Source of the DNA: a virus
Direction: 5' to 3' (one strand)
IMG/VR virus record: IMGVR_UViG_3300025711_000007
Location: 15,785 to 79,784 of that record
Length of the DNA: 64,000 nt
Positions 2,332 through 16,768 of this stretch are shown one piece after another. Below the pieces are notes generated by a model that saw only the letters and a list, made by a program, of their open reading frames with translations, searched no databases and was not told where the DNA came from. Made by a program: the position numbers and the translations under genes. Position 1 is the stretch's first letter, and each line of letters opens with the position of its first letter.

Positions 2332-3087
2332 ATGTCAGCGGGAACCGTAATCTCCGGGGGTTTCCCCGGGCGTGTCGCGCAGGAAGTCCAGCCCAACCAA
2401 AAGTGCGAGGGCTGTCTCCACTACGACGGCCAGGCGGGGAGGACCGGGGCATGCACGATCGGGTCTCGCCCATGGTTGTGTGGGGACGGCGGTGCCCAGG
2501 ACGTCGGCTACGCGCCGATCGCTGCCGGCGCGGGCAGCTACCTGCCGGACATGAGCAACCACGGCGCGCACGCGCCGGAGGTCGACGGGCAGCACTCGTC
2601 GGACCTGCACGGGGTCGGGTCGACGAGGCCGGTCGTGTTCCGGCAGGTGTCGCTCGGCGAGGAGCACGTCCACCTCGTCAAGAGCATGGTCGAGCAGCAC
2701 GGCAGGATCCAGAAGTCGCAGTGCAGGTTGTGCTCGCTGGCGGGCGCGCGCGGCGCGTCGTCGGCGAACCACGAGTTCCAGACGTGCACCTGTGCCGCTC
2801 TCGACGCCGGCGTGGTCGCCAAGGCGATCGTCCAGCGGATGAGCAACGCGCAGCGCGTCGGTGTTCGGTTGGACGACGTCGCGCAGTGGGTGCGTGACGT
2901 GGCGAAAGCTGGGTTCCGGTTGCCTGTCCCGGACAAGGCACGCAGCTTGGGGTCTCACGTCGTCGACGACCAGACCGATCGCGGGCCGAAGAAGGGACCG
3001 AAGAGGTCGATCTCCGACCAGGTCCGGATCGACGACAGCGGGGGCCACCTCCGCCCGTCGTCGAAGTCGCCCGCGAAAGCACGGTGA
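2332..3087 (+). CDS. Hypothetical Cys-rich head-module protein
   Basis: CEGC...C...C and CRLC motifs; LVKS/IQKS/VAKA motifs; immediately upstream of portal. Confidence 0.7.
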   Translation: MSAGTVISGGFPGRVAQEVQPNQKCEGCLHYDGQAGRTGACTIGSRPWLCGDGGAQDVGYAPIAAGAGSYLPDMSNHGAHAPEVDGQHSSDLHGVGSTRPVVFRQVSLGEEHVHLVKSMVEQHGRIQKSQCRLCSLAGARGASSANHEFQTCTCAALDAGVVAKAIVQRMSNAQRVGVRLDDVAQWVRDVAKAGFRLPVPDKARSLGSHVVDDQTDRGPKKGPKRSISDQVRIDDSGGHLRPSSKSPAKAR

Positions 3088-3090
3088 TCT

Positions 3091-4827
3091 ATGGTCGACG
3101 AGCAGGTGGTCGCCTCGCAGCAGGCTGCGCTGCCGGCTGACATCCAGAAGGCGGTCGCGGCGGCGTTCGAGGAACTCCGCGAGCGGGCGTGGTCGAACGA
3201 GTCTGCGGTGGCGAAGGCCAGCGCCGCGCCGAACGACAACCAGCCGAAGTCGTGGTTCGCCGACCCGTTCGCGCTGCTGGACTCGGTCGGCATGGGGTAC
3301 CGCAACGCGCCGACGTACCTGACGTACGACACCCTGCGCCAGGTGGCCGAGCGCGACACCTACGTCGCGCCGATCATATTGACGCGGATCGACCAGATCA
3401 ACACGTTCGCTAGGCTGCAGCCGAACAAGTATTCCGTCGGGTTCTTGATTCGCCCGCGATTCGGCGACAAGAAGCGCATGTTGTCGCGCAGCGAGAAGGA
3501 GCGGACCGAGCACCTGGCGATGATGGTGCTCAACACGGGGATCGAGTACAACCTCGGCCGCGACGGGCTCAGGCAGTTCATATCGAAGTTCGTGCGCGAC
3601 TCGCTGACCTATGACCAGGGGTGCTTCGAGAGCATCCGAACGCGGTCCGGAGGTGTCCACTCGTTCCACGCGGTGGACAGCGCGACGATCCGGACGACGA
3701 CCCCGAAGCAGATGAAGGGGACACCTCCCCGGATCAACGACCTCAAGAAGGACATCCGCTACGTCCAGGTCATCAACTCGTCGATCACGGCGGAGTTCAC
3801 CATCGACGAGATGGCGTTCTGCGTCCGCAACCCGAGGTCGAACGTCAAGACGTACGGGTACGGGCTGCCCGAGATCGAGACGCTGATAACGACGATCACC
3901 AGCCACCTGTGGGCCGAGGAGTGGAACCGCCGGATGTTCTCGCAGGGGAGCACCGTGAAGGGTTTGCTCAACGTCAAGGGCAACTTGCCTCCCGTCCAGT
4001 TCGAGGCGTTCAAGCGGATGTGGCACTCGCAGGTCGCGGGGGTCCAGAACGCGTGGAAGACACCGATGCTCAACTCGGAGGAGGTGCAGTGGGTCCCGCT
4101 GCAGCTCAGCAACACCGAGATGGGCTACCAGATGTGGATGGACTACCTCTGCAAGATCACCTGCGCGTTGTTCCGGATCGACCCGGCTGAGATTAACTTC
4201 GACCTTCGGGGCGGCGTGGGCGCGGCGCCGGTGTTCATGTCCACGAACGAGGCGCAGCAGAAGGCGAGCAAGGATCGCGGACTGCAGCCGCTGCTCGACT
4301 TCGTCGCGGACGCCATCAATCGTCACATCGTCTGGAAGATCGACCCGCGATTCGAGTTCGCGTTCATCGGCCTCGACGCGAAGACCGAGGAGCAGGCCAT
4401 GCAGCTCCGCCAGCAGCAGGCCCAGTCGCACCTCAAGTTGAACGAGGTGCGCGCGATGGACGACCTGCCGCCTGTCGAGTACGGCGACGTCGTGCTCAAC
4501 CCGGTCTACATCGGGTATCGGACCCAGATGATGATGGCACAGCAGCAAGCGCAGCAGCCGGGGCAGCCAGGTCAGCCCGGCCAAGACGGGCCGCCGCCCC
4601 GGTTCACGCAGCCGCCGGGGGACGAGGAGGAGCACGGCGCTGACCAGATCCGGCAGTTCGCCGAGGACAAGCCGGGCCGGGCGGCGTCTTCCGACGAGGG
4701 GTCCGGTCCGTCTCCGCGCGTGCTGTCGCGCCTGCACATCGACGACTGGGACTCCGTGGTCAGCCACTCGATCAGGAGCGACGACCTCGCGAAGGCCGAG
4801 GTGTACGACGTCATCGACATCGACTAG
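3091..4827 (+). CDS. Portal protein
   Basis: VRDSLTYDQ, FHAVDSATIR, VRNPRS..YGYGLPEIE, FRIDPAEINF, SKDRGLQPLL, LNEVRA motifs as in A511/Twort-type portals; Q/P/G-rich tail. Confidence 0.93.
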   Translation: MVDEQVVASQQAALPADIQKAVAAAFEELRERAWSNESAVAKASAAPNDNQPKSWFADPFALLDSVGMGYRNAPTYLTYDTLRQVAERDTYVAPIILTRIDQINTFARLQPNKYSVGFLIRPRFGDKKRMLSRSEKERTEHLAMMVLNTGIEYNLGRDGLRQFISKFVRDSLTYDQGCFESIRTRSGGVHSFHAVDSATIRTTTPKQMKGTPPRINDLKKDIRYVQVINSSITAEFTIDEMAFCVRNPRSNVKTYGYGLPEIETLITTITSHLWAEEWNRRMFSQGSTVKGLLNVKGNLPPVQFEAFKRMWHSQVAGVQNAWKTPMLNSEEVQWVPLQLSNTEMGYQMWMDYLCKITCALFRIDPAEINFDLRGGVGAAPVFMSTNEAQQKASKDRGLQPLLDFVADAINRHIVWKIDPRFEFAFIGLDAKTEEQAMQLRQQQAQSHLKLNEVRAMDDLPPVEYGDVVLNPVYIGYRTQMMMAQQQAQQPGQPGQPGQDGPPPRFTQPPGDEEEHGADQIRQFAEDKPGRAASSDEGSGPSPRVLSRLHIDDWDSVVSHSIRSDDLAKAEVYDVIDID

Positions 4828-4837
4828 GATCGCCGGG

Positions 4838-6760
4838 GTGAGCGTTTCGACCCCCTACCAGTTCGCGAAGCGCGGCAACTTGTTCATCATTCCGGTCGGG
4901 CCGTCGATCGACGAGGTCCCGTACCCGGCGCAGTCGTTCACCAAGCCGCCGCCGGCGAACTCGCTGTGGGTGAATGGTCGGATCCAGGAGACCGGGCTCC
5001 ACCACGACCACGCGCGCATGTCGACGCACCTCTACCGCGAGGTCAGGGACGACCTCACGCGCTACTCGCCCGTCGAGGTCACGAGATCGGCTTTCTGCCG
5101 CTCCCACCACGCGTACGTCGGGGTCATCGACTCCCGAGGGGTTCCCTACTACTTCGCGCTCGACTCGCGCGGCGTGTCGGTGCGCGCGGCTGACTCGGAA
5201 GAGGCGGCGTGGAAGGCGTTCGACCGGATGTCGGACGGGGAGCACGCGGAAGCCGTGCGCCAGCGCCGCGCGGAGTCCGCCGAAGAGGTGAGGCGAAGCG
5301 GCGGAACAAGCCTCGTGATAACCAAAGGACTTAAGTACGGCAAGAAGACTGAGTGGAAGCACAACGTGCCGCACTCCACATGGTGGAGGAAGCTACCTAA
5401 GACCGAAGCGAGAGATGACCAAGGTGGTGATGACGATCACGACTTGGCCGACGCGCATACAGCGAACCCCAAGAAGGCAAAAACTTCCCAAACGAGCAGG
5501 TGGCGAGCTAAGTATCCGGGAGGGAAAGTAGACAAGATGACGACGAACAAATCAGAGATTCCACTCGTCGTCATCTCGGCCGTAGCGGCGGATGCGGGTG
5601 ATCGCTCTGCTGGAGTCGATCCCGCGACGTACGCTGGCCTGAAGTACGCCGCTCTGATGCGACGGCTTGGAGCTGACCTCTGCGAAGACGAGGATCTGGA
5701 TCCGCCCGTACCTGCCGATGAGCGCTTCTTGGACGTAGCCGTCGTCAAGGCGCTCCCGAAGAAGCCGAAGGTCGACGAGGTCAAGAAGACGCCGGCTCGG
5801 TCAGCGTCGAAGAAGCAAGCAGGCGCCGGCGGCAAGACGCGGTACACGTACCTGAGCGAGAAGAAGTCAGGAGCAGGTAACCAGGTGCCGCTCGTCATCG
5901 CGCACGATGACCACAAGCACGCCGATCCGTTCGAGCTCGCCAACCAGCTCGGGGTGTCAGTGCGGACGCTGCAGGCCGCGGCGCGCCGGTTGGGGCGTTC
6001 CGGGTTCGCCACGTTCATGCGGTCGCGCCTCAAGCGGTTCGCCGCGAAGCATCGTTTGGATCCTGACTACTGGAACACGCTGTACGTGTCGTTGGAGTCG
6101 GGAGATGTCGACGTCAAGAAGAGTGAGAACGTCGACCTGAAGAAGTTCGGAGATGATGCAAAGAAGGTCGCGTCATCCGTACCAGAAAGCCACGTCGGGA
6201 GGTTTCACGGGAGCGACAAGGTGTTCATCCATCACGTGCATCACGAGATGAAGCGCCGTGGGATGTATTCTGGTGGGTTGGACGAGTTCAAGAACCATCT
6301 AGTAGAAGCGCAACATAAGAGACATGTTAACTTGTCTCGAGCTGACCTAGTCGGCGCGATGGATCCGAAGCACGTGTCGCAATCTGAGACTCATGCTAAC
6401 GGAGCTAGCTTCCACTTCGTTAATGCTGGGCACAACCCGCACGCAGCTAAAGAACTAGATCACGCGCACGCGCCGCAGAGTGCTGGACACGCTGCGACAG
6501 ATAAAATGAAGACGACGCGAGCGAAGCCGCATAAGAGCATCCATCATGAAGTGGCAGGTGTGTTGTCGCAAGAAGCACGCGATGCAACTAAGCACGCGAC
6601 TAAAATAAATACTAAAGAAGCACATCTCGCGGCAATGACTGCACACCACCAGGCCGGAGCACAGCACCAGAAGGCATCCGGTGACGTGAACAACAAGACA
6701 GCGCTTAAGCACTTCGACCAATCGGTGTCTCACCTCAAGGCGTCGAAAGCGGCGAACTGA
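4838..6760 (+). CDS. Large modular head-associated protein (HTH-like segment, His-rich C-terminal module)
   Basis: 640-aa ORF after portal; ELANQLGVSVRTLQ HTH-like; mosaic GC content. Confidence 0.75.
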   Translation: MSVSTPYQFAKRGNLFIIPVGPSIDEVPYPAQSFTKPPPANSLWVNGRIQETGLHHDHARMSTHLYREVRDDLTRYSPVEVTRSAFCRSHHAYVGVIDSRGVPYYFALDSRGVSVRAADSEEAAWKAFDRMSDGEHAEAVRQRRAESAEEVRRSGGTSLVITKGLKYGKKTEWKHNVPHSTWWRKLPKTEARDDQGGDDDHDLADAHTANPKKAKTSQTSRWRAKYPGGKVDKMTTNKSEIPLVVISAVAADAGDRSAGVDPATYAGLKYAALMRRLGADLCEDEDLDPPVPADERFLDVAVVKALPKKPKVDEVKKTPARSASKKQAGAGGKTRYTYLSEKKSGAGNQVPLVIAHDDHKHADPFELANQLGVSVRTLQAAARRLGRSGFATFMRSRLKRFAAKHRLDPDYWNTLYVSLESGDVDVKKSENVDLKKFGDDAKKVASSVPESHVGRFHGSDKVFIHHVHHEMKRRGMYSGGLDEFKNHLVEAQHKRHVNLSRADLVGAMDPKHVSQSETHANGASFHFVNAGHNPHAAKELDHAHAPQSAGHAATDKMKTTRAKPHKSIHHEVAGVLSQEARDATKHATKINTKEAHLAAMTAHHQAGAQHQKASGDVNNKTALKHFDQSVSHLKASKAAN

Positions 6761-6780
6761 CGCCAGCCTGGCTGATGTCC

Positions 6781-6810
6781 TGTACGAAGCAGCCGCGGTG
6801 CTGGTAGGCT
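6781..6810 (+). promoter_or_regulatory. Candidate extended -10 promoter
   Basis: TGG-TAGGCT (6802-6810), ATG at 6819; no SD. Confidence 0.4.
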
Positions 6811-6818
6811 ATGCGTCG

Positions 6819-8528
6819 ATGCCGCGACAAGTCACGAAGGGCTTCCAGCTGGTCACGCTCGACGAGTGCTACCGCGACGTCGTGAAGGCGGACGGCGGAG
6901 CGGGTTCTCCGCGCCAGGTCAGCACTCCCGCTTCGCCGCCGCCGAGCACGTCGGACGTGGCGAGCCGCCCGAAGAAGTTCCCGCGTCGGCTGAAGCCGAC
7001 CGTGCGGATGAAGCCGATCAGCGACGCGGAGGCCATGGCTCACATCGCGAGCGGCACCTACAACCCGAACAAGCAGAAGTCGCTGCGCTGGCTCGTCGCG
7101 CTCAAGGCCCTCGCGACCGGGTACTCGAAGACGTCCGGGGGCGGGGCGCTCAAGGCGGCGAACCGTCGGAGCCGGGATCGGCCGAGCCGCCGGAGCTGGC
7201 GCACGGCTCCGTACCTCGGCCCCGACGGTCGGTACGGGAAGATGAGCGGCAAGGACCGCCGGCGGTCCCTGCGCCGAGCGATGGAGGCGATGTCGTCCCC
7301 CATCGGGTCGGCGAAGCCGCCGAGCGTGTACCTGCCGGGAGTCCACAACCCGAAGTCTCCGGTGCGTTCCGCGTCGGGGATCAAGAAGCCGAAGAAGCTG
7401 GCGGTCGCGAAGCCAGGCAGCTCAGGTAACAGCATGGGGAAGGCCGGCGAGACCGCCGCGGTGGGTCGCGGGAGTCGAGGCGGCGCTGTTGGGGCGATCA
7501 CCGGCGCCGCCGTGGGTCGGACCCTCAACGACGCGCGCCATGGCAACTCTCCTGGACGCGACGTGACGCGGTTCGGGATAACAACCGTGGCGTCTAAGCC
7601 ATCGAACATCTCAGCGAGCGAGCGCGAACGGATAAGCGCCAAACGTGCGGCGCGGATGGCAAAACAGACAGCCGAGAAGTCCAGCAATCTGGAGAGCAGC
7701 ATGGCGAAAGCGGAGCACAGCTTCGGTAGAGGGGACCTCGTCGTCCACAACGCGAGCGCGGACCCGAAGGCTCACGGGACCATCGGCGCCGTCGGTCCTC
7801 GCTCCACGGGCACACACATCCATCTCCGGACCGCGGGGTCTCCGCCTCGGATGGTCCACCACAGCGAGGTCCGCGCCGCGACCGCGGACGACATCAAGCA
7901 TCACCAGAGCACGGTGCACAAGCTCCACGGCCTCGGCTTCACCGACCAGGCGACCGCGAAAGGAATTTCCATGTCGACGACGAATTTCAACGACCTGTTC
8001 AAGTCGGAACTCGGTACGCCGGAAGACGAGGTCCTGACCGACTGCCCGCACTGCGAGGCGCCGATCACCAAGGGTGACCTCGAGAAGGCGCACAAAGGCA
8101 AGGGCAAGACGACGCACCAGACCGGACCGAAGCACGGGAAGTCCAGCGCGCACGTCCGGGACCACAATCCGGAGGGCGGGACGATGCGGGGCGGCGACGG
8201 GCGTGGCGTCCACACGTCGAGCCGAGGCGTCCCCGGCGCGAAGAAGACCGACGAGGTCCGCATGGTCGGCCAGGGGCGGCGCGTGTTGAAGGCGGACGAC
8301 GTGTCCGGAGAAGATGACCTGGATGACCGGACGAGCAAGGCCGAGGTCCCGCCGACCAAGGATGTCAACAAGTCCGTCATCACGATCCGAGGCACCGAGT
8401 ACGTGCAGTACGTCGACGACGGGTCGGATGGTCGGATCGCCAAGGCTATCGCCGAGGGAGCCATCGGCGGGACCTCCCCGACTCAACCGCTCGACCTGAA
8501 CAACGACCTCTCGCGGCTCCTGATCTGA
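6819..8528 (+). CDS. Basic low-complexity head-associated protein
   Basis: K/R/S/G/H-rich, CPHC motif, about a dozen x-x-K-[SAG] motifs; start could be 6798. Confidence 0.75.
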   Translation: MPRQVTKGFQLVTLDECYRDVVKADGGAGSPRQVSTPASPPPSTSDVASRPKKFPRRLKPTVRMKPISDAEAMAHIASGTYNPNKQKSLRWLVALKALATGYSKTSGGGALKAANRRSRDRPSRRSWRTAPYLGPDGRYGKMSGKDRRRSLRRAMEAMSSPIGSAKPPSVYLPGVHNPKSPVRSASGIKKPKKLAVAKPGSSGNSMGKAGETAAVGRGSRGGAVGAITGAAVGRTLNDARHGNSPGRDVTRFGITTVASKPSNISASERERISAKRAARMAKQTAEKSSNLESSMAKAEHSFGRGDLVVHNASADPKAHGTIGAVGPRSTGTHIHLRTAGSPPRMVHHSEVRAATADDIKHHQSTVHKLHGLGFTDQATAKGISMSTTNFNDLFKSELGTPEDEVLTDCPHCEAPITKGDLEKAHKGKGKTTHQTGPKHGKSSAHVRDHNPEGGTMRGGDGRGVHTSSRGVPGAKKTDEVRMVGQGRRVLKADDVSGEDDLDDRTSKAEVPPTKDVNKSVITIRGTEYVQYVDDGSDGRIAKAIAEGAIGGTSPTQPLDLNNDLSRLLI

Positions 8529-8531
8529 CGC

Positions 8532-9980
8532 GTGCCGTCCGTCAGCCTCGACGCGATGTTCGGTGACGGAGGGGCGGACCTGGGCGGCGACGTCGTCGCC
8601 AAAGCCCAGGTCCGGTTCCGCGTCCGGCCGCCGGCGCACCCGGCGGCGCAGGACGTCGTCGACCGCGTCGTGTCGGCGTACGACGAGCGGCTCGACATGA
8701 TCCTCGACGAGATCGTCGCGGTGATCCGATGTGCGAACTCGGAGCGTCCACCCACACCCGTCCTCGTGGTCGAGGGTGACCGCTCCACCCCGCGGGATCT
8801 CGTGGCGAAGGCCACGCCGCGCGCGCCGTTTCGTCCGGGGTCGCGAGGAGGCAAGTGGTACCGCGACAGCAAGGGCAACGTGCGCTACGGGGAGCCTCCC
8901 GAGGGGCGTTTCATGGGGAACGCCGGGACGGATGCCCCGATGCCGCACCTCGACCACTTCCGGCCTCGTCAGTTCATGGGCACCTTCGGCAGCGACCGGG
9001 AGCTGACCGGGTTCTTGGTCGAGCACGGGAGCAAGCACGGGTTCTCCGACAGCGAGCTCCGGTTCCTCAGCGCGTGGTACGGCACCAGCGACGGGGACGG
9101 CGGCGCCCTCTACGACGCGTTCCTCGAGTGCGCCGGCTTGACGCGAGAGGAGGCGGCGAACGACGTCACTAACCTCCGCTTCGGCAGCAAGCAGCTCACG
9201 TACGAGGAGGCGGTGTTCGAGTTCTTCGCGGCGCAGGGTGCGCTGTTCATGGGCGAGGAGCCAACCTCCCCGGACCAGGTGAAGGAGTGGCACGCCGTGT
9301 TGAACGACGAGATCAAGCCGCTGCTCGACGACGTGTTCGTCAAGTACGAAGGGATGAAGGATGACGAGTCCCTGCAGGAGCACTTCGCGGGCGAGTCCGG
9401 CCGGCAGCGTCGCCGGTTCTTCGACCACGCGCGTCGCTGCGCAGGTGACGTCGACGGGGTCTCCGACTCCGTCGTTGGTGACTGGGATCCGACCCGGGTG
9501 ACGGACACGGTCTTGATGGGTATGCAGGCTCTCGGCCTGATCGCCCGCCGCGCCAGGGCGGAGCACCACGCGTACGTCCACGGGCGCCCTCACCTCCGCG
9601 ACGCGGTGGTCGTCGACGGCAGGTTGATCGCCAACGGGTCTGACAGCCCGCTTCTCGAGGGCGGCGGCAAGCTGGCCGAGCTGTCGTCCTCGCAGCTCAT
9701 GCTGCTCTACGTGGCAGCCGAGCTGCACCGCAGGTGGGACGCGCACGCGCGGTCGTTCTCGCCGGAGAAGCAGGCGGACGTCGGCGCCGGCGAGCTCGGC
9801 GAGGCGGTGTTATCCGCGCTCGCGGGGAAGACTCCGCGGTGGGCCGAGGTGTCGAGCGTGATCCGCGGGCGCCTCGCGGAGCTGGTCGACCTCGTGGTGT
9901 CGCGGCTCAACGCCGTCAACTCCCGCGAGGGTCTGCCCACCAAGCACGGGCCGGCGAAGCGGCGGCGAGGGTCGCGGTGA
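8532..9980 (+). CDS. Hypothetical head-associated protein
   Basis: Two N-terminal VAKA motifs followed by PGSRGGKWYRDSKGNVRYG and a helical domain. Confidence 0.75.
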   Translation: MPSVSLDAMFGDGGADLGGDVVAKAQVRFRVRPPAHPAAQDVVDRVVSAYDERLDMILDEIVAVIRCANSERPPTPVLVVEGDRSTPRDLVAKATPRAPFRPGSRGGKWYRDSKGNVRYGEPPEGRFMGNAGTDAPMPHLDHFRPRQFMGTFGSDRELTGFLVEHGSKHGFSDSELRFLSAWYGTSDGDGGALYDAFLECAGLTREEAANDVTNLRFGSKQLTYEEAVFEFFAAQGALFMGEEPTSPDQVKEWHAVLNDEIKPLLDDVFVKYEGMKDDESLQEHFAGESGRQRRRFFDHARRCAGDVDGVSDSVVGDWDPTRVTDTVLMGMQALGLIARRARAEHHAYVHGRPHLRDAVVVDGRLIANGSDSPLLEGGGKLAELSSSQLMLLYVAAELHRRWDAHARSFSPEKQADVGAGELGEAVLSALAGKTPRWAEVSSVIRGRLAELVDLVVSRLNAVNSREGLPTKHGPAKRRRGSR

Positions 9981-10387
9981 CCGCCGGCCCATTCATCCTC
10001 GAGATCGACCCCGGCGTCGAAGGCGACGTCCCGTCGCTCCACGCGCTGACGCCGGCGTCCGTGCTCGTGGTCCTGGGTCGAGAGGACCTCGAGCAGAAGC
10101 TCGCGGCCTTCGCCGACCCGGTCAGGAACAAGGTCGTGCGCAACGCGCCGAAGGACCGGCGATGGTACGTCGAGAAGATCCTCCCAGCGCTGCGGTTCTA
10201 CTGCGACAAGTACGACGTCGAGCAACCGAGCTGGCTGGTGGGCAACAACCACTGGGAAGGGATGCCGCGGGACGAGCAGGAGCGGCTGTTCGGGCCAGGG
10301 GACCTGCGGTTCCGAGAATTCCGACCCGTGAGCTGCCCGGACATCGCCGTCGTCCGCGACGGCGACGACGAGCAGGAGCCCGCGTAG
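9977..10387 (+). CDS. Hypothetical protein
   Basis: GTGA overlap with upstream stop; globular composition from 9977 onward. Confidence 0.7.
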   Translation: MTAGPFILEIDPGVEGDVPSLHALTPASVLVVLGREDLEQKLAAFADPVRNKVVRNAPKDRRWYVEKILPALRFYCDKYDVEQPSWLVGNNHWEGMPRDEQERLFGPGDLRFREFRPVSCPDIAVVRDGDDEQEPA

Positions 10388-11334
10388 TGGCTCCCCGCAT
10401 TCTGTCGCCGCTGCAGCGCCGGCGCATCCAGCAGGCGATCCGCGACGGCCACCTCGCGTTCCTGGCGGAGGTGTTCGGACCCACCGCGATCGACGCGGAC
10501 GACTACGACCGGCTGCGCGCCGCCGGCAAGATCCGAGGCGAGAGGCTGATGCCGCAGGACGCCGCGCTGGCCGCCCACGCGATCGGGGCGATCGCCGGGC
10601 ACGAGCAGGCGGATGGTCCGTCAGGTGACGGCAGCTTGCTGTCCGCGCCGGACGAGTTCTGGCAACACGTCCGCGACGACCCGCAGGTCATCACGGAGGC
10701 CGAGCGCGAGGCCGTGACGGTGATCCGCGACCGGGTCGCGCAGTACGTGCGCGGGCTCGGCGACGGCCTCGACGCCGCGGTCGGCCACATACTGATCGAC
10801 GTCGACGACGAGGCCCGGAAGGTGCGGTTGGTCCGAGGGGCCGCAGACGAGCGGGCGTCCAAGCAGGTGGTGATCGAGCGGGTCCGGGTGGCGATCAACA
10901 ACCTCCGGCGGGACTGGCTCCGCGTCGCCCACACCGAGCTGCACAACGCGGCCGAGTCGGCGAAGGCGGTCGTGCTGGCGGGTCGCGACCCGGCGGTGTT
11001 CAAGCGCCCGCACCCGGACGCCTGCGCGTTCTGCAAGCTGCTGTACTTGAAGCCCGACGGTTTGACGCCGCGCGTGTTCAGGTTGTCCGCGCTCATCGCG
11101 AACGGCACGAACGTAGGTCGGCGAGCTCGCCGGCCGACGAGGTCGGGCAGGTCCCGCACGGAGTGGAAGCCCGTCCTCGGGGCGGTGCACCCGTTCTGCC
11201 GGTGCTCCATGAGCGTCCTGCCTGGTGGCATGGGCTTCGACGCCCACGGCCAGATGGTGTACGTTGGCGTCAAGAAGTCGGTGTCGGTCGAAGCGATCGA
11301 CAAGGATCTCGTCAACCACACCTGCGAGGAGTGA
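10387..11334 (+). CDS. MuF / SPP1 gp7-like minor head protein
   Basis: RDWLRVAHTELHNA, DACAFC and HPFCRC motifs. Confidence 0.85.
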   Translation: MAPRILSPLQRRRIQQAIRDGHLAFLAEVFGPTAIDADDYDRLRAAGKIRGERLMPQDAALAAHAIGAIAGHEQADGPSGDGSLLSAPDEFWQHVRDDPQVITEAEREAVTVIRDRVAQYVRGLGDGLDAAVGHILIDVDDEARKVRLVRGAADERASKQVVIERVRVAINNLRRDWLRVAHTELHNAAESAKAVVLAGRDPAVFKRPHPDACAFCKLLYLKPDGLTPRVFRLSALIANGTNVGRRARRPTRSGRSRTEWKPVLGAVHPFCRCSMSVLPGGMGFDAHGQMVYVGVKKSVSVEAIDKDLVNHTCEE

Positions 11335-11339
11335 CACAG

Positions 11340-11918
11340 ATGGCGCGCATCACAGGAACCGTATCGCGCAGCGTACCGCTCGACCCCGTCATCGGCCGCC
11401 CGCTGACCCTGTCCGGCACGTTCGACCTCTTCGTGTCGGGGGCCGAGCTGGCGCGCATCACGCCGACGCTCGAGTCGCTCATCGCCTCGGGCATCATGAC
11501 GAGCCACAACAGGTACCAGGAGAGCGACAGCCTCGTGGCCAACGTCACGGCCCCGATCGTCGACGTCGCGGCGAGCGGCACCGCGACGCCGGCCCCGCTC
11601 CAGACCATCTCGATCGCGGTCCCGGACGCCGCCGGCGACAACACGTACACGTACACGTCGGCGAAGAAGATCGAGGTCGTCGACGTCGTCGTCCACAAGA
11701 ACGGGGCCGGCGCCGGCAACACGATCCAGCTACAGGACAACGCCGCCGCCGCGATCTCCGACGCGATCGTCGCCGCCGTCGACAAGGCCGTCACCCGAGC
11801 AGGGACGCTGGACCAGACCAAGAAGGTCATCAACGCGGGCTCAACGTTCAAGCTCCTCGCCCACCGCGCGGCCGGGACGATGGCGTCCGAGGTGTACCTG
11901 GTCGTCATCCTCCGGTGA
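11340..11918 (+). CDS. Putative virion structural/decoration protein
   Basis: GAGG upstream; A/T/V-rich beta pattern; head module. Confidence 0.65.
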   Translation: MARITGTVSRSVPLDPVIGRPLTLSGTFDLFVSGAELARITPTLESLIASGIMTSHNRYQESDSLVANVTAPIVDVAASGTATPAPLQTISIAVPDAAGDNTYTYTSAKKIEVVDVVVHKNGAGAGNTIQLQDNAAAAISDAIVAAVDKAVTRAGTLDQTKKVINAGSTFKLLAHRAAGTMASEVYLVVILR

Positions 11919-11934
11919 GACGGGCGTCCGCCGC

Positions 11935-12795
11935 ATGAGCGAGTTCTCAGACCTCGTAATGCGCGAGAAGCCGCGGAAGCTCGGCAAGGCTCCGGGCGGC
12001 AAGAGCGGGGCTTTGCTCGCGTCGTACGAGGGAGGAGTCAAGGCGATCGTCAAGGTCACCAAGGACAAGCTGCCGAGCGGCCACCGCAAGCAGCGCGGCA
12101 TCCCGGCCGAGGCTCACCCGACGCGGGAGGTCGCGTTCTACAGCGCCGCGCTGATGCTCGGGTACGGAGAGCTCGTGCCGGAGACGGTGCTGACGAGCAA
12201 GGCTGTGCCAGGCGCGACGGCGTCGGCGCAGCTGTTCGTCCCCGCGCACCAGCTCCACGAGGTCGTGCCGGAGCTGAAGGACCTCGACGCGCCCGACTGG
12301 GGGCAGCACCTCGTCGAGGCGTGCGCCAGGGTACCGAAGGTGTTCTGGAAGCGGCTCCTCATCCTCGACATCCTCGGCGGGGTCCGCGACCGTCACGCGA
12401 ACAACATCGGCCTGCGCCTGCGCGTAGTCGACGACCAGCCGGTGTACAGGAACGTCGCTTGGGACAACGCGGTGTCGTTCGGCAAGACGTTTGATCGTTA
12501 CCACAACGTGTTCCACAAGCACTTGTTCCGGAGAGCTGTGGACCTCGGAGAAGAATGGCAATCTGTAGACAAGTTGACCCGCGCTGACCTGCGAGGAGCA
12601 GTCGGCATGTACTTGCAACCAGACGAGCTCGAGCATGCCTACCTGCGCGTGCGGTTCTTCCGCGACTACCCCTACCGATTGCCGTGGCGCGTCTGCAGCA
12701 AGGGCAACGACGACCCGCACGGTTTCCCCGACTACGAGACGTATTTCCGGTCGTGTGTCGGGGGCCCCCGACACACGGCACACGTCGCGGCATGA
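11935..12795 (+). CDS. PI3/PI4-kinase-like (HipA-superfamily) kinase
   Basis: Gly-rich loop, AIVK, REVAFY..A..LG..LVPETV, SAQLFV, LDIL...DRHANN, WDNAVSF. Confidence 0.8.
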   Translation: MSEFSDLVMREKPRKLGKAPGGKSGALLASYEGGVKAIVKVTKDKLPSGHRKQRGIPAEAHPTREVAFYSAALMLGYGELVPETVLTSKAVPGATASAQLFVPAHQLHEVVPELKDLDAPDWGQHLVEACARVPKVFWKRLLILDILGGVRDRHANNIGLRLRVVDDQPVYRNVAWDNAVSFGKTFDRYHNVFHKHLFRRAVDLGEEWQSVDKLTRADLRGAVGMYLQPDELEHAYLRVRFFRDYPYRLPWRVCSKGNDDPHGFPDYETYFRSCVGGPRHTAHVAA

Positions 12796-12828
12796 ACTTC
12801 GTGTATATTCAACCCGTGGTGACCCGAG

Positions 12829-13575
12829 ATGCGTGAGCGCGACCATGTCGACCGCCTCCTGGAGAGCGACGACTTCTGCGTGTGGACTCCCATCGACACC
12901 ACGCTGATAGAGAAGTCAGCCAAGGCGGGCGTCGACGTCGAAGCGACGCGCCCGATCGGCGGGTGGTGCTCGACGGAGAACATCGACAGGCAAGAGGAAG
13001 TGGTCGTTGCCAAGGGGCTCGACTTCTCCGAGTTCGTGCAGTTCGGGTACTTCAACGACAACCACCGGCAAGACACCGCGTCGGTGCTCGGGTACCCGAG
13101 GCTCGCCAAGCTCCACAAGGCGGGGTGGTGGACCGAAGGTAACCTGCTGCCTGGTTACCCGCCGGCGGACCGCGTGTGGGAGCTGGCCAAGGCGCTCGCG
13201 AAGTCGCGGGCCCCCCGCAGCCTCGGGTTCTCCATCGAGGGCAAGGTGCTGGAGAGGGACGGAGGATCGCGCATCGTGAGGGCGAAGGTGCGCAACGTCG
13301 CCATCACCAACGCTCCGGTCAACACCGACTGTACGTGGTCCATCTTGTCAAAAGCGTTCTCCTCGGCGGGCCGGGTGGAGACCGCGGCTCGCAAGGCTAT
13401 GGCAGAAAACCGGACGATGGGGCAGAGTCAGGGGGGCCACAGCGTGAGCAGCATCATCCACCAGCGCAACGTGGTCCTCAGCTTCGACGAGGCGGTCGAC
13501 CGCGTGCGGAGGATCCACCCGCACCTCAGCAAAAGCGCGTGCGCGCGCGTTGTCCGCTTCGCGGCGCGTCGCTAG
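12829..13575 (+). CDS. Prohead protease (HK97-type)
   Basis: STENIDRQEE, GYFNDNH (His), GFSIEG (Ser), NVAITNAPVN. Confidence 0.92.
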   Translation: MRERDHVDRLLESDDFCVWTPIDTTLIEKSAKAGVDVEATRPIGGWCSTENIDRQEEVVVAKGLDFSEFVQFGYFNDNHRQDTASVLGYPRLAKLHKAGWWTEGNLLPGYPPADRVWELAKALAKSRAPRSLGFSIEGKVLERDGGSRIVRAKVRNVAITNAPVNTDCTWSILSKAFSSAGRVETAARKAMAENRTMGQSQGGHSVSSIIHQRNVVLSFDEAVDRVRRIHPHLSKSACARVVRFAARR

Positions 13576-13587
13576 GAGATCCGAACC

Positions 13588-13920
13588 ATGCCTGCCACCA
13601 AGAACACGTTCTCGCCGCGCCCCTGGCAGAGCCAGCAGGACGGCAACGTCCACACGGGCGTCGTGTCCGTCACGGGGTCCGCCGTGGTTGACCTCGGGAT
13701 CGGTCACGGCAACTTCGTCCCCTGCGTCAGCTTGCAGGGTTCGACGGCGGCGATCGCAAACGCGGCGGCCAACGTGACGTGGTCGTACGGGCCGCAGCCG
13801 GGTCAGTTCACGATCTCCACGTGGAAGGCGACCGCCGCCGGCACCACCACGTTGATCGCCGCCACCGCGGCGGTCAGCGTGTCGTTCATCGCGTTCGCCG
13901 ATAGTTCGGCGGGAATTTAG
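13588..13920 (+). CDS. Putative virion structural protein
   Basis: AGGAG SD; small beta-rich protein between protease and scaffold. Confidence 0.65.
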   Translation: MPATKNTFSPRPWQSQQDGNVHTGVVSVTGSAVVDLGIGHGNFVPCVSLQGSTAAIANAAANVTWSYGPQPGQFTISTWKATAAGTTTLIAATAAVSVSFIAFADSSAGI

Positions 13921-14336: not shown

Positions 14337-15347
14337 ATGGCAAAGACCAAGATCGCTGAGGGCAAGCTCCTCAAGGCCATCGCCGAGCTCGAGGCGGTCA
14401 CGAAGGGTGACCCGCTGGAGGAGGCGGACCCCGAAGGCGGGTTGTCCACCGAGGGTGAGCCGCTCTCCGACGGGGCTCCTCGCGGGCGCGGCGACGCGAC
14501 CAAGAAGTCGCGCCGGGCGAGCGCGAGTTCCCCGTTCGGGTCCAGGTCGTCGAGCTCGGCGTCTTCGGACGCGAGCTCGGACGATGGCGACGACGCCGAC
14601 GCGATGTCGCCCCAGAAGCCCATCCCGAAGAAGGGAAAGAAGGTCAGCAAGGCCGCCCCGCCGCCGGCCGAGAGCAGCGAGTCGGACAGCGACGACGACT
14701 CCAGCGCCGGGTCCAGCGACTCCGACGATTCCGACGATGCGGACAAGTCGTTTCGCGACGCGGCCGAGGGCGACGAGGTGATGTCCAAGGGGCTCGTCGT
14801 CAACGAGTTCCTGGAGGCGATGGTCGACCAGATCAGCCTGGCGCTGTTCAACGTCCAGAAGTCGATGGCGAAGTCGCTCAAGGCGATGGAGCAGCGTCTC
14901 CAGTCCCACATCGACGACCGCGTCGCCAAGAGCGCGGCGGGTCAGGGCGACTTCAATGCCCGCCTCGCGAAGGCGGTCGCGGCGATCGGCAACACCGTGC
15001 AGGGCGAGCTGCTCGGCATGGCGGACATGGTCAAGTCGATGGCCAACCAGCCGGTGTCCGGCCCGCGTGGCAAGGCGGTGCTGAGCAAGGGAGAGGTCAA
15101 CGCGCCGCCGTGGAGCGGGCCGTCGGCAGTCAACGCCGACCAGCGGATGGCGAGCGGGTCGGGCGGGGACTACGTCGCGGAGCTGAGCGAGCTGTCCCCC
15201 GAGGCGATCGGGGACTGGCTGTTCAAGAAGTCGGCGAGCCAGGCCGTGGACCCGCGGGTCATCATGGCCTGGGAAGCGGATCGCTACAACGTCGAGGTGT
15301 TGCCTGTGCAGATCCGCAAGGCCATCGCCAACGACCTCATCAAGTAA
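14337..15347 (+). CDS. Capsid scaffold-like protein
   Basis: Directly before capsid gene; acidic/Ser-rich disorder plus coiled coil; dense x-x-K-[SAG] motifs. Confidence 0.75.
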   Translation: MAKTKIAEGKLLKAIAELEAVTKGDPLEEADPEGGLSTEGEPLSDGAPRGRGDATKKSRRASASSPFGSRSSSSASSDASSDDGDDADAMSPQKPIPKKGKKVSKAAPPPAESSESDSDDDSSAGSSDSDDSDDADKSFRDAAEGDEVMSKGLVVNEFLEAMVDQISLALFNVQKSMAKSLKAMEQRLQSHIDDRVAKSAAGQGDFNARLAKAVAAIGNTVQGELLGMADMVKSMANQPVSGPRGKAVLSKGEVNAPPWSGPSAVNADQRMASGSGGDYVAELSELSPEAIGDWLFKKSASQAVDPRVIMAWEADRYNVEVLPVQIRKAIANDLIK

Positions 15348-15367: not shown

Positions 15368-16768
15368 ATGATCTCGATGAAGGACTACGAGGGTTACCAC
15401 GGCTTCGGGCAGCTCGCCCAAGTCGAGGTTGACGAGCTGAGCAAGGCGCTCAGCTCTGGTTACCAGAATCCGCCCGTCTCCGGCTCCAACGCGCTGCGCG
15501 TCGAGTCGCTGGAGCAGACGCTGCGGATCCTGACGTTCACGCAGGCGCACGTCCAGTTCTGGCGGGACATCCCGAAGCTGCCCGCCTTCTCGACGGTCGA
15601 GGAGTACAACGTCCAGACGTCGTACGGCTCGGAGGGTGGCATGTTCACCCGCGCCGGCGAGCTGCCGCAGGTCCAGGACGCGTCGTACGAGCGCCGCACG
15701 GCGCTCGTGAAGTACGTGACCACGCAGCGCGAGGTCGACCACCCGACGACGCTCGTCCGGCCCGCCCACGGCAACGTGGTCGCGCAGGAGACCCAGAACG
15801 GCGGCGTCTGGATCCTGGAGCGCGTCGAGCGCGCCCTGTACACGGGCCGCAGCGACGTCATCACCGAGGCGTGGGACGGTCTCGACCAGCAGATCCGCAG
15901 CGACCCGAGCGCGGCGAACGTGGCGATCATCGACCTCCGCGGCGGCATCTTGACGGAGGACAACGTCGAGGACGCCACCAACCGCGTCATCGAGAACTAC
16001 GGCGTGCCGACCGACCTCTACGCCGCGCCGAAGGCGCTGTCGTCGATGGTCAAGCAGTTCTACCCGCGCGAGCGGTTCAACATGCCCGCGCCGGTCGACG
16101 GCGTCGTCGGCATGTCGGTCAACCGGATCCGCACGCAGGCGGGCCTGATCAACCTGAAGGGCAACATCTTCCTCCGCTCGGGGAAGAACAACTCGGTGAA
16201 GAACGCGCCCGCCGCGGCCAACTCGGTGCGGGCCCCGGTGGTGCCGAGCGCCTCGGCCGCGAACACCGCCGGCCCGATCGCCGCGTCGCTGTTCGGGGCC
16301 GGAGACGTCGGCACGTGGCGCTACCGCGTCACCGCGGTCAACCGCTTCGGCGAGTCCGCCGCCAGCACCGTGACGACCGCGGCGATCGCCGCCGCGCTCG
16401 ACGAGATCACGGTGACGATCACCAACAACGCCGACAGCAGCGACCCGACGACCGGGTACAACATCTACCGCTGCCCGACGGTGGGCGGCGGGGTGGGCAC
16501 CGAGCAGTACCTGACCCAGGTGCCGCGCGTCGCCGGCGCGGCGACGACGGCGTTCGTCGACGCGAACCGCTTCCTGCCGAACACGAGCCGCGCCTACCTC
16601 AAGCAGATGAACCTGCAGGCGATCTCGTTCCGCCAGCTGGCGCCGATGATGAAGATCCCGCTGGCGACCATCGCGCTCAGCATCCGGTGGGCGATGCTCC
16701 TGTACGGGATGCCGATCGTCTACGCGACGCGCAAGTTTACGATCTTCGACAACGTCGGCGACGAGTAG
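15368..16768 (+). CDS. Major capsid protein (A511 Cps-like) with Ig/FN3-like insertion
   Basis: GGGAGG SD; LSKALSSGY...ALRVESLE, STVEEY, PTDLY, YRVTAVNRFGES, QLAPMMKIPLA...LLYG. Confidence 0.93.
   Translation: MISMKDYEGYHGFGQLAQVEVDELSKALSSGYQNPPVSGSNALRVESLEQTLRILTFTQAHVQFWRDIPKLPAFSTVEEYNVQTSYGSEGGMFTRAGELPQVQDASYERRTALVKYVTTQREVDHPTTLVRPAHGNVVAQETQNGGVWILERVERALYTGRSDVITEAWDGLDQQIRSDPSAANVAIIDLRGGILTEDNVEDATNRVIENYGVPTDLYAAPKALSSMVKQFYPRERFNMPAPVDGVVGMSVNRIRTQAGLINLKGNIFLRSGKNNSVKNAPAAANSVRAPVVPSASAANTAGPIAASLFGAGDVGTWRYRVTAVNRFGESAASTVTTAAIAAALDEITVTITNNADSSDPTTGYNIYRCPTVGGGVGTEQYLTQVPRVAGAATTAFVDANRFLPNTSRAYLKQMNLQAISFRQLAPMMKIPLATIALSIRWAMLLYGMPIVYATRKFTIFDNVGDE

Follow-up and report, generated by a model that had tools for sequence, protein, structure and literature searches.

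A mosaic head-module protein of an uncultured SPO1-type soil phage, with cassettes exchanged at putative prohead-protease sites

Phages inject proteins that disarm host defences, and the rules by which such proteins are loaded have been worked out for few model phages. Here we analyze P0001, a predicted protein of 640 amino acids (aa) encoded directly 3' of the portal gene in a stretch of 64,000 nucleotides (nt) that corresponds to positions 15,785 to 79,784 of the IMG/VR virus record IMGVR_UViG_3300025711_000007. We refer to this whole stretch as the window. A preliminary description, made from the sequence of the window, proposed that P0001 is a mosaic whose compositionally shifted modules begin and end at cleavage motifs. 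In the reading that we favor, P0001 is probably a late, capsid-loaded polyprotein that is cut by the prohead protease and whose cassettes are exchanged at the cut sites, in a soil myovirus that is uncultured, rich in GC and equipped with a head of the SPO1 type.

Among described systems, P0001 appears to work most like the internal proteins of T-even phages (IPI, IPII, IPIII and Alt). According to PMC3012670 and PMC12373910, these proteins have a capsid targeting sequence (Repoila 1994, cited therein). They are packaged and cut, and enter the host together with the DNA, where known members block host defences. They are a diverse, fast-changing cargo united only by a conserved N-terminal leader that ends in a prohead-protease site, and the P0001 family is alike in that a shared N-terminal leader stands on unrelated cargo, with a motif directly past it (in 52 of 52 close and 23 of 25 distant proteins). 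However, the T4 proteins have a targeting sequence of ~10 residues and separate small genes, and follow the gp21 rule Leu/Ile-x-Glu, whereas P0001 has a leader of 150 residues that is predicted to be folded, several modules in one open reading frame (ORF) with internal sites, and the rule hydrophobic-x-Lys followed by a small residue. We found no sequence homology between P0001 and the T4 targeting sequence, and the motif does not follow the Glu rule of gp21, since it has Lys and then Ala, Ser or Gly.

In architecture, P0001 is consistent with the polyvalent proteins described by Iyer et al. 2017 (PMC5512222), which are highly mosaic and combine unrelated domains in one chain among virion genes. 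P0001 likewise contains several unrelated domains and is located among virion genes, both here and in each of the 9 related loci, and the repertoire of its homologues overlaps with that of polyvalent proteins in 2H phosphoesterase, ADP-ribosyltransferase, NUDIX and GNAT domains. Conflict-type enzymatic domains are present in homologues and in distant proteins that bear the leader domain, and none was recognized in P0001. The release of polyvalent-protein parts has been proposed to occur via embedded metallopeptidase domains, which are present in many members but not all (PMC5512222). P0001 differs in that it has no match to a peptidase family and its joints carry the putative motif of a separate prohead protease. 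In contrast to MuF-fused polymorphic toxins, it also has no match to the MuF domain (PF04233).

The prohead proteases of T4, phiKZ and SPN3US recognize one short motif, at which they cleave the scaffold, the propeptides of capsid proteins and internal proteins (PMC10052503; PMC3012670). In phiKZ and SPN3US, N-terminal propeptides of 111-254 residues are removed from ejection or inner-body proteins by the prohead protease, sometimes at several sites, and the motif, which ends in Glu, is likewise present in the capsid protein and in the protease (PMC10052503). These phages differ from ours in that propeptides are trimmed off single mature proteins, and cassette exchange at the cuts is undescribed there. 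The Herelleviridae (SPO1 and a Staphylococcus phage) share with the phage studied here homologous head genes, an aligned site in the capsid protein and, in the SPO1 scaffold and protease, a similar density of motifs. At the level of the motif, P0001 resembles a substrate of an SPO1/Herelleviridae-type protease (hydrophobic-x-Lys, then Ser or Ala, as at the capsid-protein propeptide). However, this phage group has cargo-type genes, ~8 kb in all, in the interval from portal to protease, where SPO1 has none. We did not find a cargo chain with such protease motifs at its joints described in the literature for SPO1-type heads.

Compositional blocks and module exchange in P0001

We defined the motif as [VILMF]-x-K-[ASG], with a proposed cut after the Lys, which we mark with a slash. 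P0001 holds exactly three such sites, each at a joint between two of its four modules, A to D, and cuts would fall after residues 163, 304 and 428 (joints J1 to J3; Table 1). In windows of 25 codons, GC content at third codon positions (GC3) is ~0.92 over aa 1-140, ~0.6 over aa 145-290, 0.8-0.96 over aa 295-420 and 0.32-0.6 over aa 470-600. Maximum-likelihood segmentation, with the number of segments chosen by the Bayesian information criterion (BIC), yields four segments: 1-148 (GC3 0.93), 149-294 (0.62), 295-437 (0.86) and 438-640 (0.58). By module, GC3 is 0.90 in A, 0.64 in B, 0.85 in C and 0.59 in D. The GC3 mosaic is thereby confirmed. It had been described as an AT-richer run from ITKG (5318) to VVKA, a GC-rich segment with GGKTRYTY and a helix pair resembling a helix-turn-helix (HTH), and a second AT-richer, His-rich module starting at VKKS (6113); the coordinates and peptide strings are all correct, GGKTRYTY (aa 331-338) and the HTH (aa 366-392) lie in the third of our segments, and the His-rich module corresponds to the fourth.

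The GC3 change points (codons 148, 294 and 437) are located 9-15 codons from the three motif sites, and the motif triple fits the GC3 of P0001 better than 98.8% of random triples, so the breakpoints and the motifs are related. For the three change points, support intervals span codons 144-155, 288-304 and 421-476, and the motif cuts at 304 and 428 fall within theirs. The proposal that composition breaks at the motifs therefore holds for J2 and J3 within the support intervals, while the J1 cut lies outside its interval. Among the other genes of the window, none has internal low-GC3 blocks of 140-200 codons, and most other low-GC3 stretches in the window are over-called 5' ends. In the ParB-like ORF at 14-1360, for example, GC3 falls to 0.23 over the first ~140 codons; because it is so low there, the true start is probably near codon 140.

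A word-indexed search found 60 homologues of P0001, while an exhaustive HMMER search gave 914 hits. The latter number reflects the fact that individual modules occur in many other proteins; most of these hits are due to the widespread domain D1, the first part of module D. Based on maps of high-scoring segment pairs and on junction alignments, modules A and C are conserved in the ~60 homologues, B has given way to modules unrelated to it, and about half of the homologues have D. The homologues are therefore not collinear over their full length and, as had been anticipated, module content varies between conserved K-[SAG] junctions: B is replaced, D is optional and the motif is kept at the joints. 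Comparison thus shows that related phages carry different cassettes and that the exchange takes place at motif-bearing joints. In this respect the idea that cargo cassettes are swapped between protease sites is supported by our data, while the cleavage that it presupposes is inferred.

The joints themselves are sharply delimited. The conserved portion of module A consists of aa 1-153 and a short linker, and is found in all homologues; sequences become unrelated after S-x-P-x-L-V-[VI]-(x)-K/[GSA], i.e., divergence is total 3' of J1. Module C opens with K/ALP[KR] in 58 of 60 homologues, and the sequence upstream of it is unrelated. The homologues without D, which are about half, end 8-18 residues past DPDYWxTLY, and those with D continue through hydrophobic-x-K/[SG][DE] in 27 of 27 cases (25 of 25 by a stricter count). 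Across the family, 51.5% of homology break points are within 5 residues of a motif site, compared to 7.7% at random, although the former value is 19% after collapsing duplicates. Identity to close homologues is 70-75% in A, 70-78% in C and 55-60% in D, and is patchy (30-50%) in B. Because proteins of ~300 aa exist in which A is joined directly to C, we regard A and C as the family core and the remainder as insertions or additions. Module C also occurs as stand-alone proteins of 126-140 aa.

The inserts that relatives carry between A and C include LigT/2H phosphoesterase (PF13563, 45-53 bits), DUF5661 (37-50 bits) and EncFtn-like domains (35-41 bits), as well as several unnamed modules. A module in locus L011 was read as ParB-like, for which Pfam gave no confirmation. 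The suggestion of a polymorphic "effector" locus fits the domain content of relatives; the modules of P0001 itself look like DNA-binding parts (HTH and winged helix) and not like enzymes. The EncFtn-like (PF22277) or rubrerythrin-like cassette is found in homologues P0035, P0041, P0054 and P0060, and a ferritin-type module as putative cargo of a phage capsid resembles the cargo of encapsulins. Encapsulin shells share their fold with phage capsids. The DUF5661 cassettes (P0008, P0031 and P0061; loci L007 and L010) hold an H-E-x-E-H string that fits HExxH and might mark a small unit that binds metal or is peptidase-like.

One homologue, in locus L010 (ORF 2376-4190), has KALPKK at both aa 372 and aa 471, encoded each time by the identical 18 nt, AAGGCCCTTCCGAAGAAG. 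These copies, at approximately 3489-3506 and 3786-3803, flank an extra His-rich module with lower GC3, and the duplication looks like the footprint of a cassette insertion at the joint.

An AT-richer patch had also been noted in the next gene, P0002, between MGKA and MAKA. There is indeed a modest dip in GC3, to 0.63-0.67 over 30-50 codons (aa 248-297, nt 7539-7688), and the region varies between relatives, but it does not form a separate segment, as the BIC prefers a single one. Relatives keep aa 10-200 and 385-576 of P0002, while the middle (aa 200-385) is replaced. In L007, one P0002 segment stands in a different order. P0002 also has two motif sites within its first 30 residues, which would yield short leader peptides.

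The joint motif as a putative protease signal

Among the close, mutually related members of the family, the motif is found at J1 in 52 of 52 proteins, at J2 in 50 of 52 and at J3 in 25 of 25. Inside modules, it is far rarer than in composition-matched shuffles, with 4 occurrences versus 12.1 in the A core, 3 versus 36.2 in the C core and 0 versus 27.0 in D. Modules C and D avoid the motif even though Lys and small residues abound in them and identity within the family has fallen to 55-75%. Of 25 distant proteins whose only shared part is domain A (25-55% identity), 23 have the motif at most 40 residues past A, whatever comes next.

The head-module proteins encoded in the window hold 47 motif sites where 15.1 are expected (a three-fold enrichment, p=4e-11), compared to 23 versus 30.1 elsewhere. 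The excess is found in the scaffold-like protein (12 versus 2.0), the protease (7 versus 0.8) and P0002 (10 versus 2.7). The scaffold proteins of relatives have 10-11 sites, that of SPO1 has 11, and the SPO1 protease has 8. The capsid protein has one site, L-S-K/A at 15437-15448, which is its predicted propeptide cut. This site aligns with L-N-K/A of SPO1 gp6.1 and with V-V-K/S in the 463-residue capsid protein of a Staphylococcus phage (5lii). A shorter form of the latter protein has been deposited (9row and two more entries), with 439 residues; it starts 24 residues later, right after the aligned Lys. We take this start as the mature N-terminus, using deposited chain lengths because our literature search found no text that states the cut site of a Herelleviridae capsid protein. 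Phage A511 reportedly matures by a cut at Lys/Ser.

The pattern of the joint motif matches what is expected for a prohead protease, and from it we infer cuts in P0001. Its occupancy at joints and avoidance inside modules, its presence in distant relatives, its association with break points and its link to the head protease together indicate that the motif at the joints is a functional site.

Other genes at this end of the window also have motif sites. The portal protein has I-Q-K/A (aa 18-21), V-A-K/A (aa 40-43) and L-A-K/A (aa 566-569), which suggests that it is trimmed at both termini; the SPO1 portal has two N-terminal sites. An ORF at 1689-1856 has 2 sites in 55 aa, which is an excess, and the ORF at 2332-3087, which is conserved before the portal gene in relatives, has 4 sites in 251 aa versus 0.8 expected.

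Predicted modules and head-gene context

We found no Pfam or PHROG family match for P0001, or for its domains A, C and D1. The model of domain A (predicted local distance difference test score, pLDDT, of 80) has a helix, a four-stranded antiparallel sheet and a long helix. In length, module A resembles the propeptides found on SPN3US ejection proteins (111-254 residues). Domain A is also N-terminal in distant proteins with topoisomerase IB, with NUDIX and Alt-like ADP-ribosyltransferase, with GNAT or with LigT domains, and because of this placement a role in loading, or as a propeptide, fits it. Module B is a chain of short motifs, which in relatives are recombined, often with further motif sites between them.

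The HTH of module C gives weak matches to GntR, HTH_6 and HTH_11. D1 is modelled at pLDDT above 90. We assign it as a winged helix from mutually consistent matches at Z 6.0-6.7 and from structure matches in the protein atlas; its Foldseek E-values are weak. Past D1 come a disordered, His-rich stretch and a helix of 60 residues. By these predicted domains, C and D look like DNA-binding parts.

The source record is 79.8 kb long, with a completeness estimate of 68% and a GC content of 66.8%, and the independent sequencing runs that hold the stretch are rhizosphere and soil metagenomes, with no RNA run listed among them. Among cultured phage records, no match was found by megablast of window positions 3000-13600 or by tblastn of P0001. 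The head genes, i.e., those for portal, prohead protease, scaffold-like protein and major capsid protein, are SPO1/Herelleviridae-like (Table 1). The identity of the protease rests on phrog_1028, for which Pfam gave no confirmation. In SPO1, the order is portal, protease, scaffold and capsid protein, with portal and protease directly adjacent and no genes between them. Here the interval encodes P0001, P0002, P0004 and two ORFs that we distinguish by the strings HPFCRC and DRHANN. A search for related viral contigs with P0001 alone returned none, and a query with the alignment returned 9 loci; in all 9, P0001 is located between portal and protease and gene order is kept. The backbone genes are collinear across these relatives, while P0001 and the middle of P0002 are not.

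Table 1. Features of the P0001 locus in window coordinates
Feature	Position	Strand	Residues	Remarks
Portal protein, SPO1/Herelleviridae-like	3091..4827	+		PF04860, phrog_12; 40% identity to SPO1 portal
P0001, mosaic ORF directly 3' of the portal gene	4838..6760	+	640 aa	Proposed head-cargo polyprotein
Module A, conserved N-terminal domain	4838..5326	+	aa 1-163	Proposed capsid-targeting or propeptide domain
Joint J1, I-T-K/G	5318..5329	+	aa 161-164	Proposed prohead-protease site
Module B	5327..5749	+	aa 164-304	Low-GC3 variable cassette of short peptide motifs
Joint J2, V-V-K/A	5741..5752	+	aa 302-305	Followed by invariant ALPKK
Module C	5750..6121	+	aa 305-428	Lysine-rich tail, GGKTRYTY, HTH
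Joint J3, V-K-K/S	6113..6124	+	aa 426-429	
Module D	6122..6757	+	aa 429-640	Low-GC3 cassette: D1 winged helix (aa 429-535), His-rich linker, long single helix
P0002, second mosaic head-module protein	6798..8528	+		10 motif sites
P0004	8532..9980			Between P0002 and prohead protease
Prohead (head maturation) protease	12829..13575	+		Proposed cutting enzyme; phrog_1028, E 8.6e-48
Scaffold-like protein	14337..15347	+		12 motif sites
Major capsid protein	15368..16768	+		phrog_752; E 7.8e-84 to SPO1 Gp6.1 chain 9vel

Several features of this interval are of separate interest. In P0004 (aa 103-120, window 8838-8891), as well as in the distant A-bearing proteins P0096, P0076 and P0094, the string GSRGGK-x-Y-x-D-x-x-G-x-VRYG occurs just past motif sites and resembles GGKTRYTY of module C; a second recurring string past such sites is KPYGHTAYTRR-x-x-x-GK. 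The ORF at 10441-11334 contains the strings PHPDACAFC...HPFCRCS and has no Pfam or PHROG match; we read it as putatively MuF-like. As listed, it starts at 10162, with a low-GC3, Arg-rich 5' extension that is probably non-coding. The ORF at 11935-12795 has no Pfam match either, but its DRHANN catalytic-loop string looks, by eye, like that of PI3/4-kinases. It is located inside the head operon, is 61-71% conserved in all relatives, and has a GC3 of 0.75 in its last 100 codons versus 0.92 in the remainder.

Proposed mechanism and its alternatives

Given a head protease with this putative specificity, we propose the following course of events. Domain A would bring the chain into the assembling prohead, where the prohead protease would cut at hydrophobic-x-Lys/Ala, Ser or Gly, the same signal as on the capsid protein and scaffold. 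The cuts would free A, B, C and D inside the capsid. The predicted DNA-binding pieces (C with its basic tail and HTH, D with its winged helix and long helix) may remain with the DNA and would probably be ejected along with it. More tentatively, the joint peptides might have a dual role, as protease cut sites and, through their coding sequence, as recombination joints; any module flanked by them could then be inserted and delivered separately, and the A-domain family might be a widespread and so far undescribed capsid-loading platform of soil phages.

Some results weigh against the polyprotein reading. The motif count of P0001 (3) equals the expectation from its composition (3.1), so the case rests on the position and conservation of the sites rather than on their number. 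The occupancy and depletion counts are inflated, as the homologues are related and the counts are not independent events. The support interval of the first GC3 change point (144-155) excludes the J1 cut at 163; this change point falls where the conserved core of module A ends, 8-19 codons upstream of the J1 motif. A donor of module D was not found: a metagenome scan gave only relatives ~55% identical, and the best D relatives overall are 55-60% identical (B was not searched separately). Domain A has no recognizable fold, in that Foldseek returned no match at E<=0.001, VIA-align scores stayed at Z<=4.7 and the protein atlas had no usable match, although a missing match is not evidence of a new fold. 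Finally, Pfam searches recognized no enzyme domain among the modules of P0001 itself.

It is important to consider how else the composition of P0001 could have arisen. The low GC3 of B and D might have developed in place, if constraint is relaxed or otherwise different where segments evolve fast or are disordered. B is largely low-complexity and shows more strain-level differences than any other module (9 in 423 nt, versus 3 in 489 nt for A), and the lack of a donor is also compatible with this idea. However, D1 is well folded and conserved according to its model and is still low in GC3, the D protein is more divergent (55-60%) than A and C (70-78%), and the four modules are alike in GC at the first and second codon positions, so we consider an origin in place unlikely. 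Moreover, GC3 in module D is 0.94 in locus L003 and uniformly high in L012, where it matches the remainder of those genes; because of this, low GC3 is not inherent to module D but specific to this phage. At the DNA level, A and C are 71-80% identical to relatives, a level similar to that of portal and protease, whereas B and D can scarcely be aligned. We conclude that B and D were most likely imported recently from lower-GC relatives. A mosaic could also be an artefact in which two co-occurring phages with different GC were joined during assembly, since the source is a metagenome and the conserved A and C could bridge reads of two strains. We rejected this explanation, to which we assign a negligible probability, because independent metagenomes cross all three joints: contigs assembled per run in two other studies (soil, 2018 and 2025) cross A/B, B/C and C/D at ~99% identity. 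In two further runs the whole stretch lies within single contigs, and the identical P0001 protein is recorded on 4 contigs.

The function of the joints also admits other interpretations. P0001 might be an uncut, multi-domain virion or late protein in which the motif is a structural feature of linkers, e.g., a strand that ends a domain, and in which shuffling is tolerated at linkers. Polyvalent proteins can be packaged or transferred intact, e.g., the N4 virion RNA polymerase and ArdC (PMC5512222), and the unexceptional motif count of P0001 agrees with such a view. However, it leaves unexplained the three-fold enrichment of the motif in scaffold, protease and other head proteins, the alignment with the start of the shorter capsid-protein form, and the strong avoidance of the motif inside A, C and D, so that we find it improbable. 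It is very unlikely, in our estimate, that P0001 is a late DNA-binding regulator that merely happens to be encoded in the head operon. This would suit the resemblance of C and D to DNA-binding domains, but not the position between portal and protease that is conserved in all relatives, nor the head-protease motif at the joints. Additionally, domains of the kind that injected phage proteins typically have (Alt-like ADP-ribosyltransferase, NUDIX, topoisomerase IB and 2H phosphoesterase) follow domain A in other proteins. We therefore retain the interpretation of P0001 as a capsid-loaded polyprotein that is probably cut at its joints.

Under this interpretation, P0001 offers a readable rule for loading, consisting of a leader domain and a short protease signal at each joint, and GC3 serves as a compositional footprint of recent cassette exchange. 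The family thus defined comprises ~60 close members and numerous distant ones. Its cargo is varied, and among it are 2H phosphoesterases, of a type that has been proposed to degrade defence signalling nucleotides (PMC5512222). Should the dual role of the joints be true, the cargo would span 2H phosphoesterases, Alt-like ADP-ribosyltransferases and EncFtn-like ferritin modules, and these ferritin modules would point to a connection between phage capsid cargo and that of encapsulins. If the cuts are confirmed, the concept of polyvalent proteins would be extended to proteins whose parts are released by the maturation protease of the capsid instead of an embedded peptidase. In that case, the motif could also be used to predict the capsid cargo of uncultured phages and to load chosen proteins into capsids. 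The joint-wise swapping of modules suggests a plug-and-play loading of proteins into the phage capsid.

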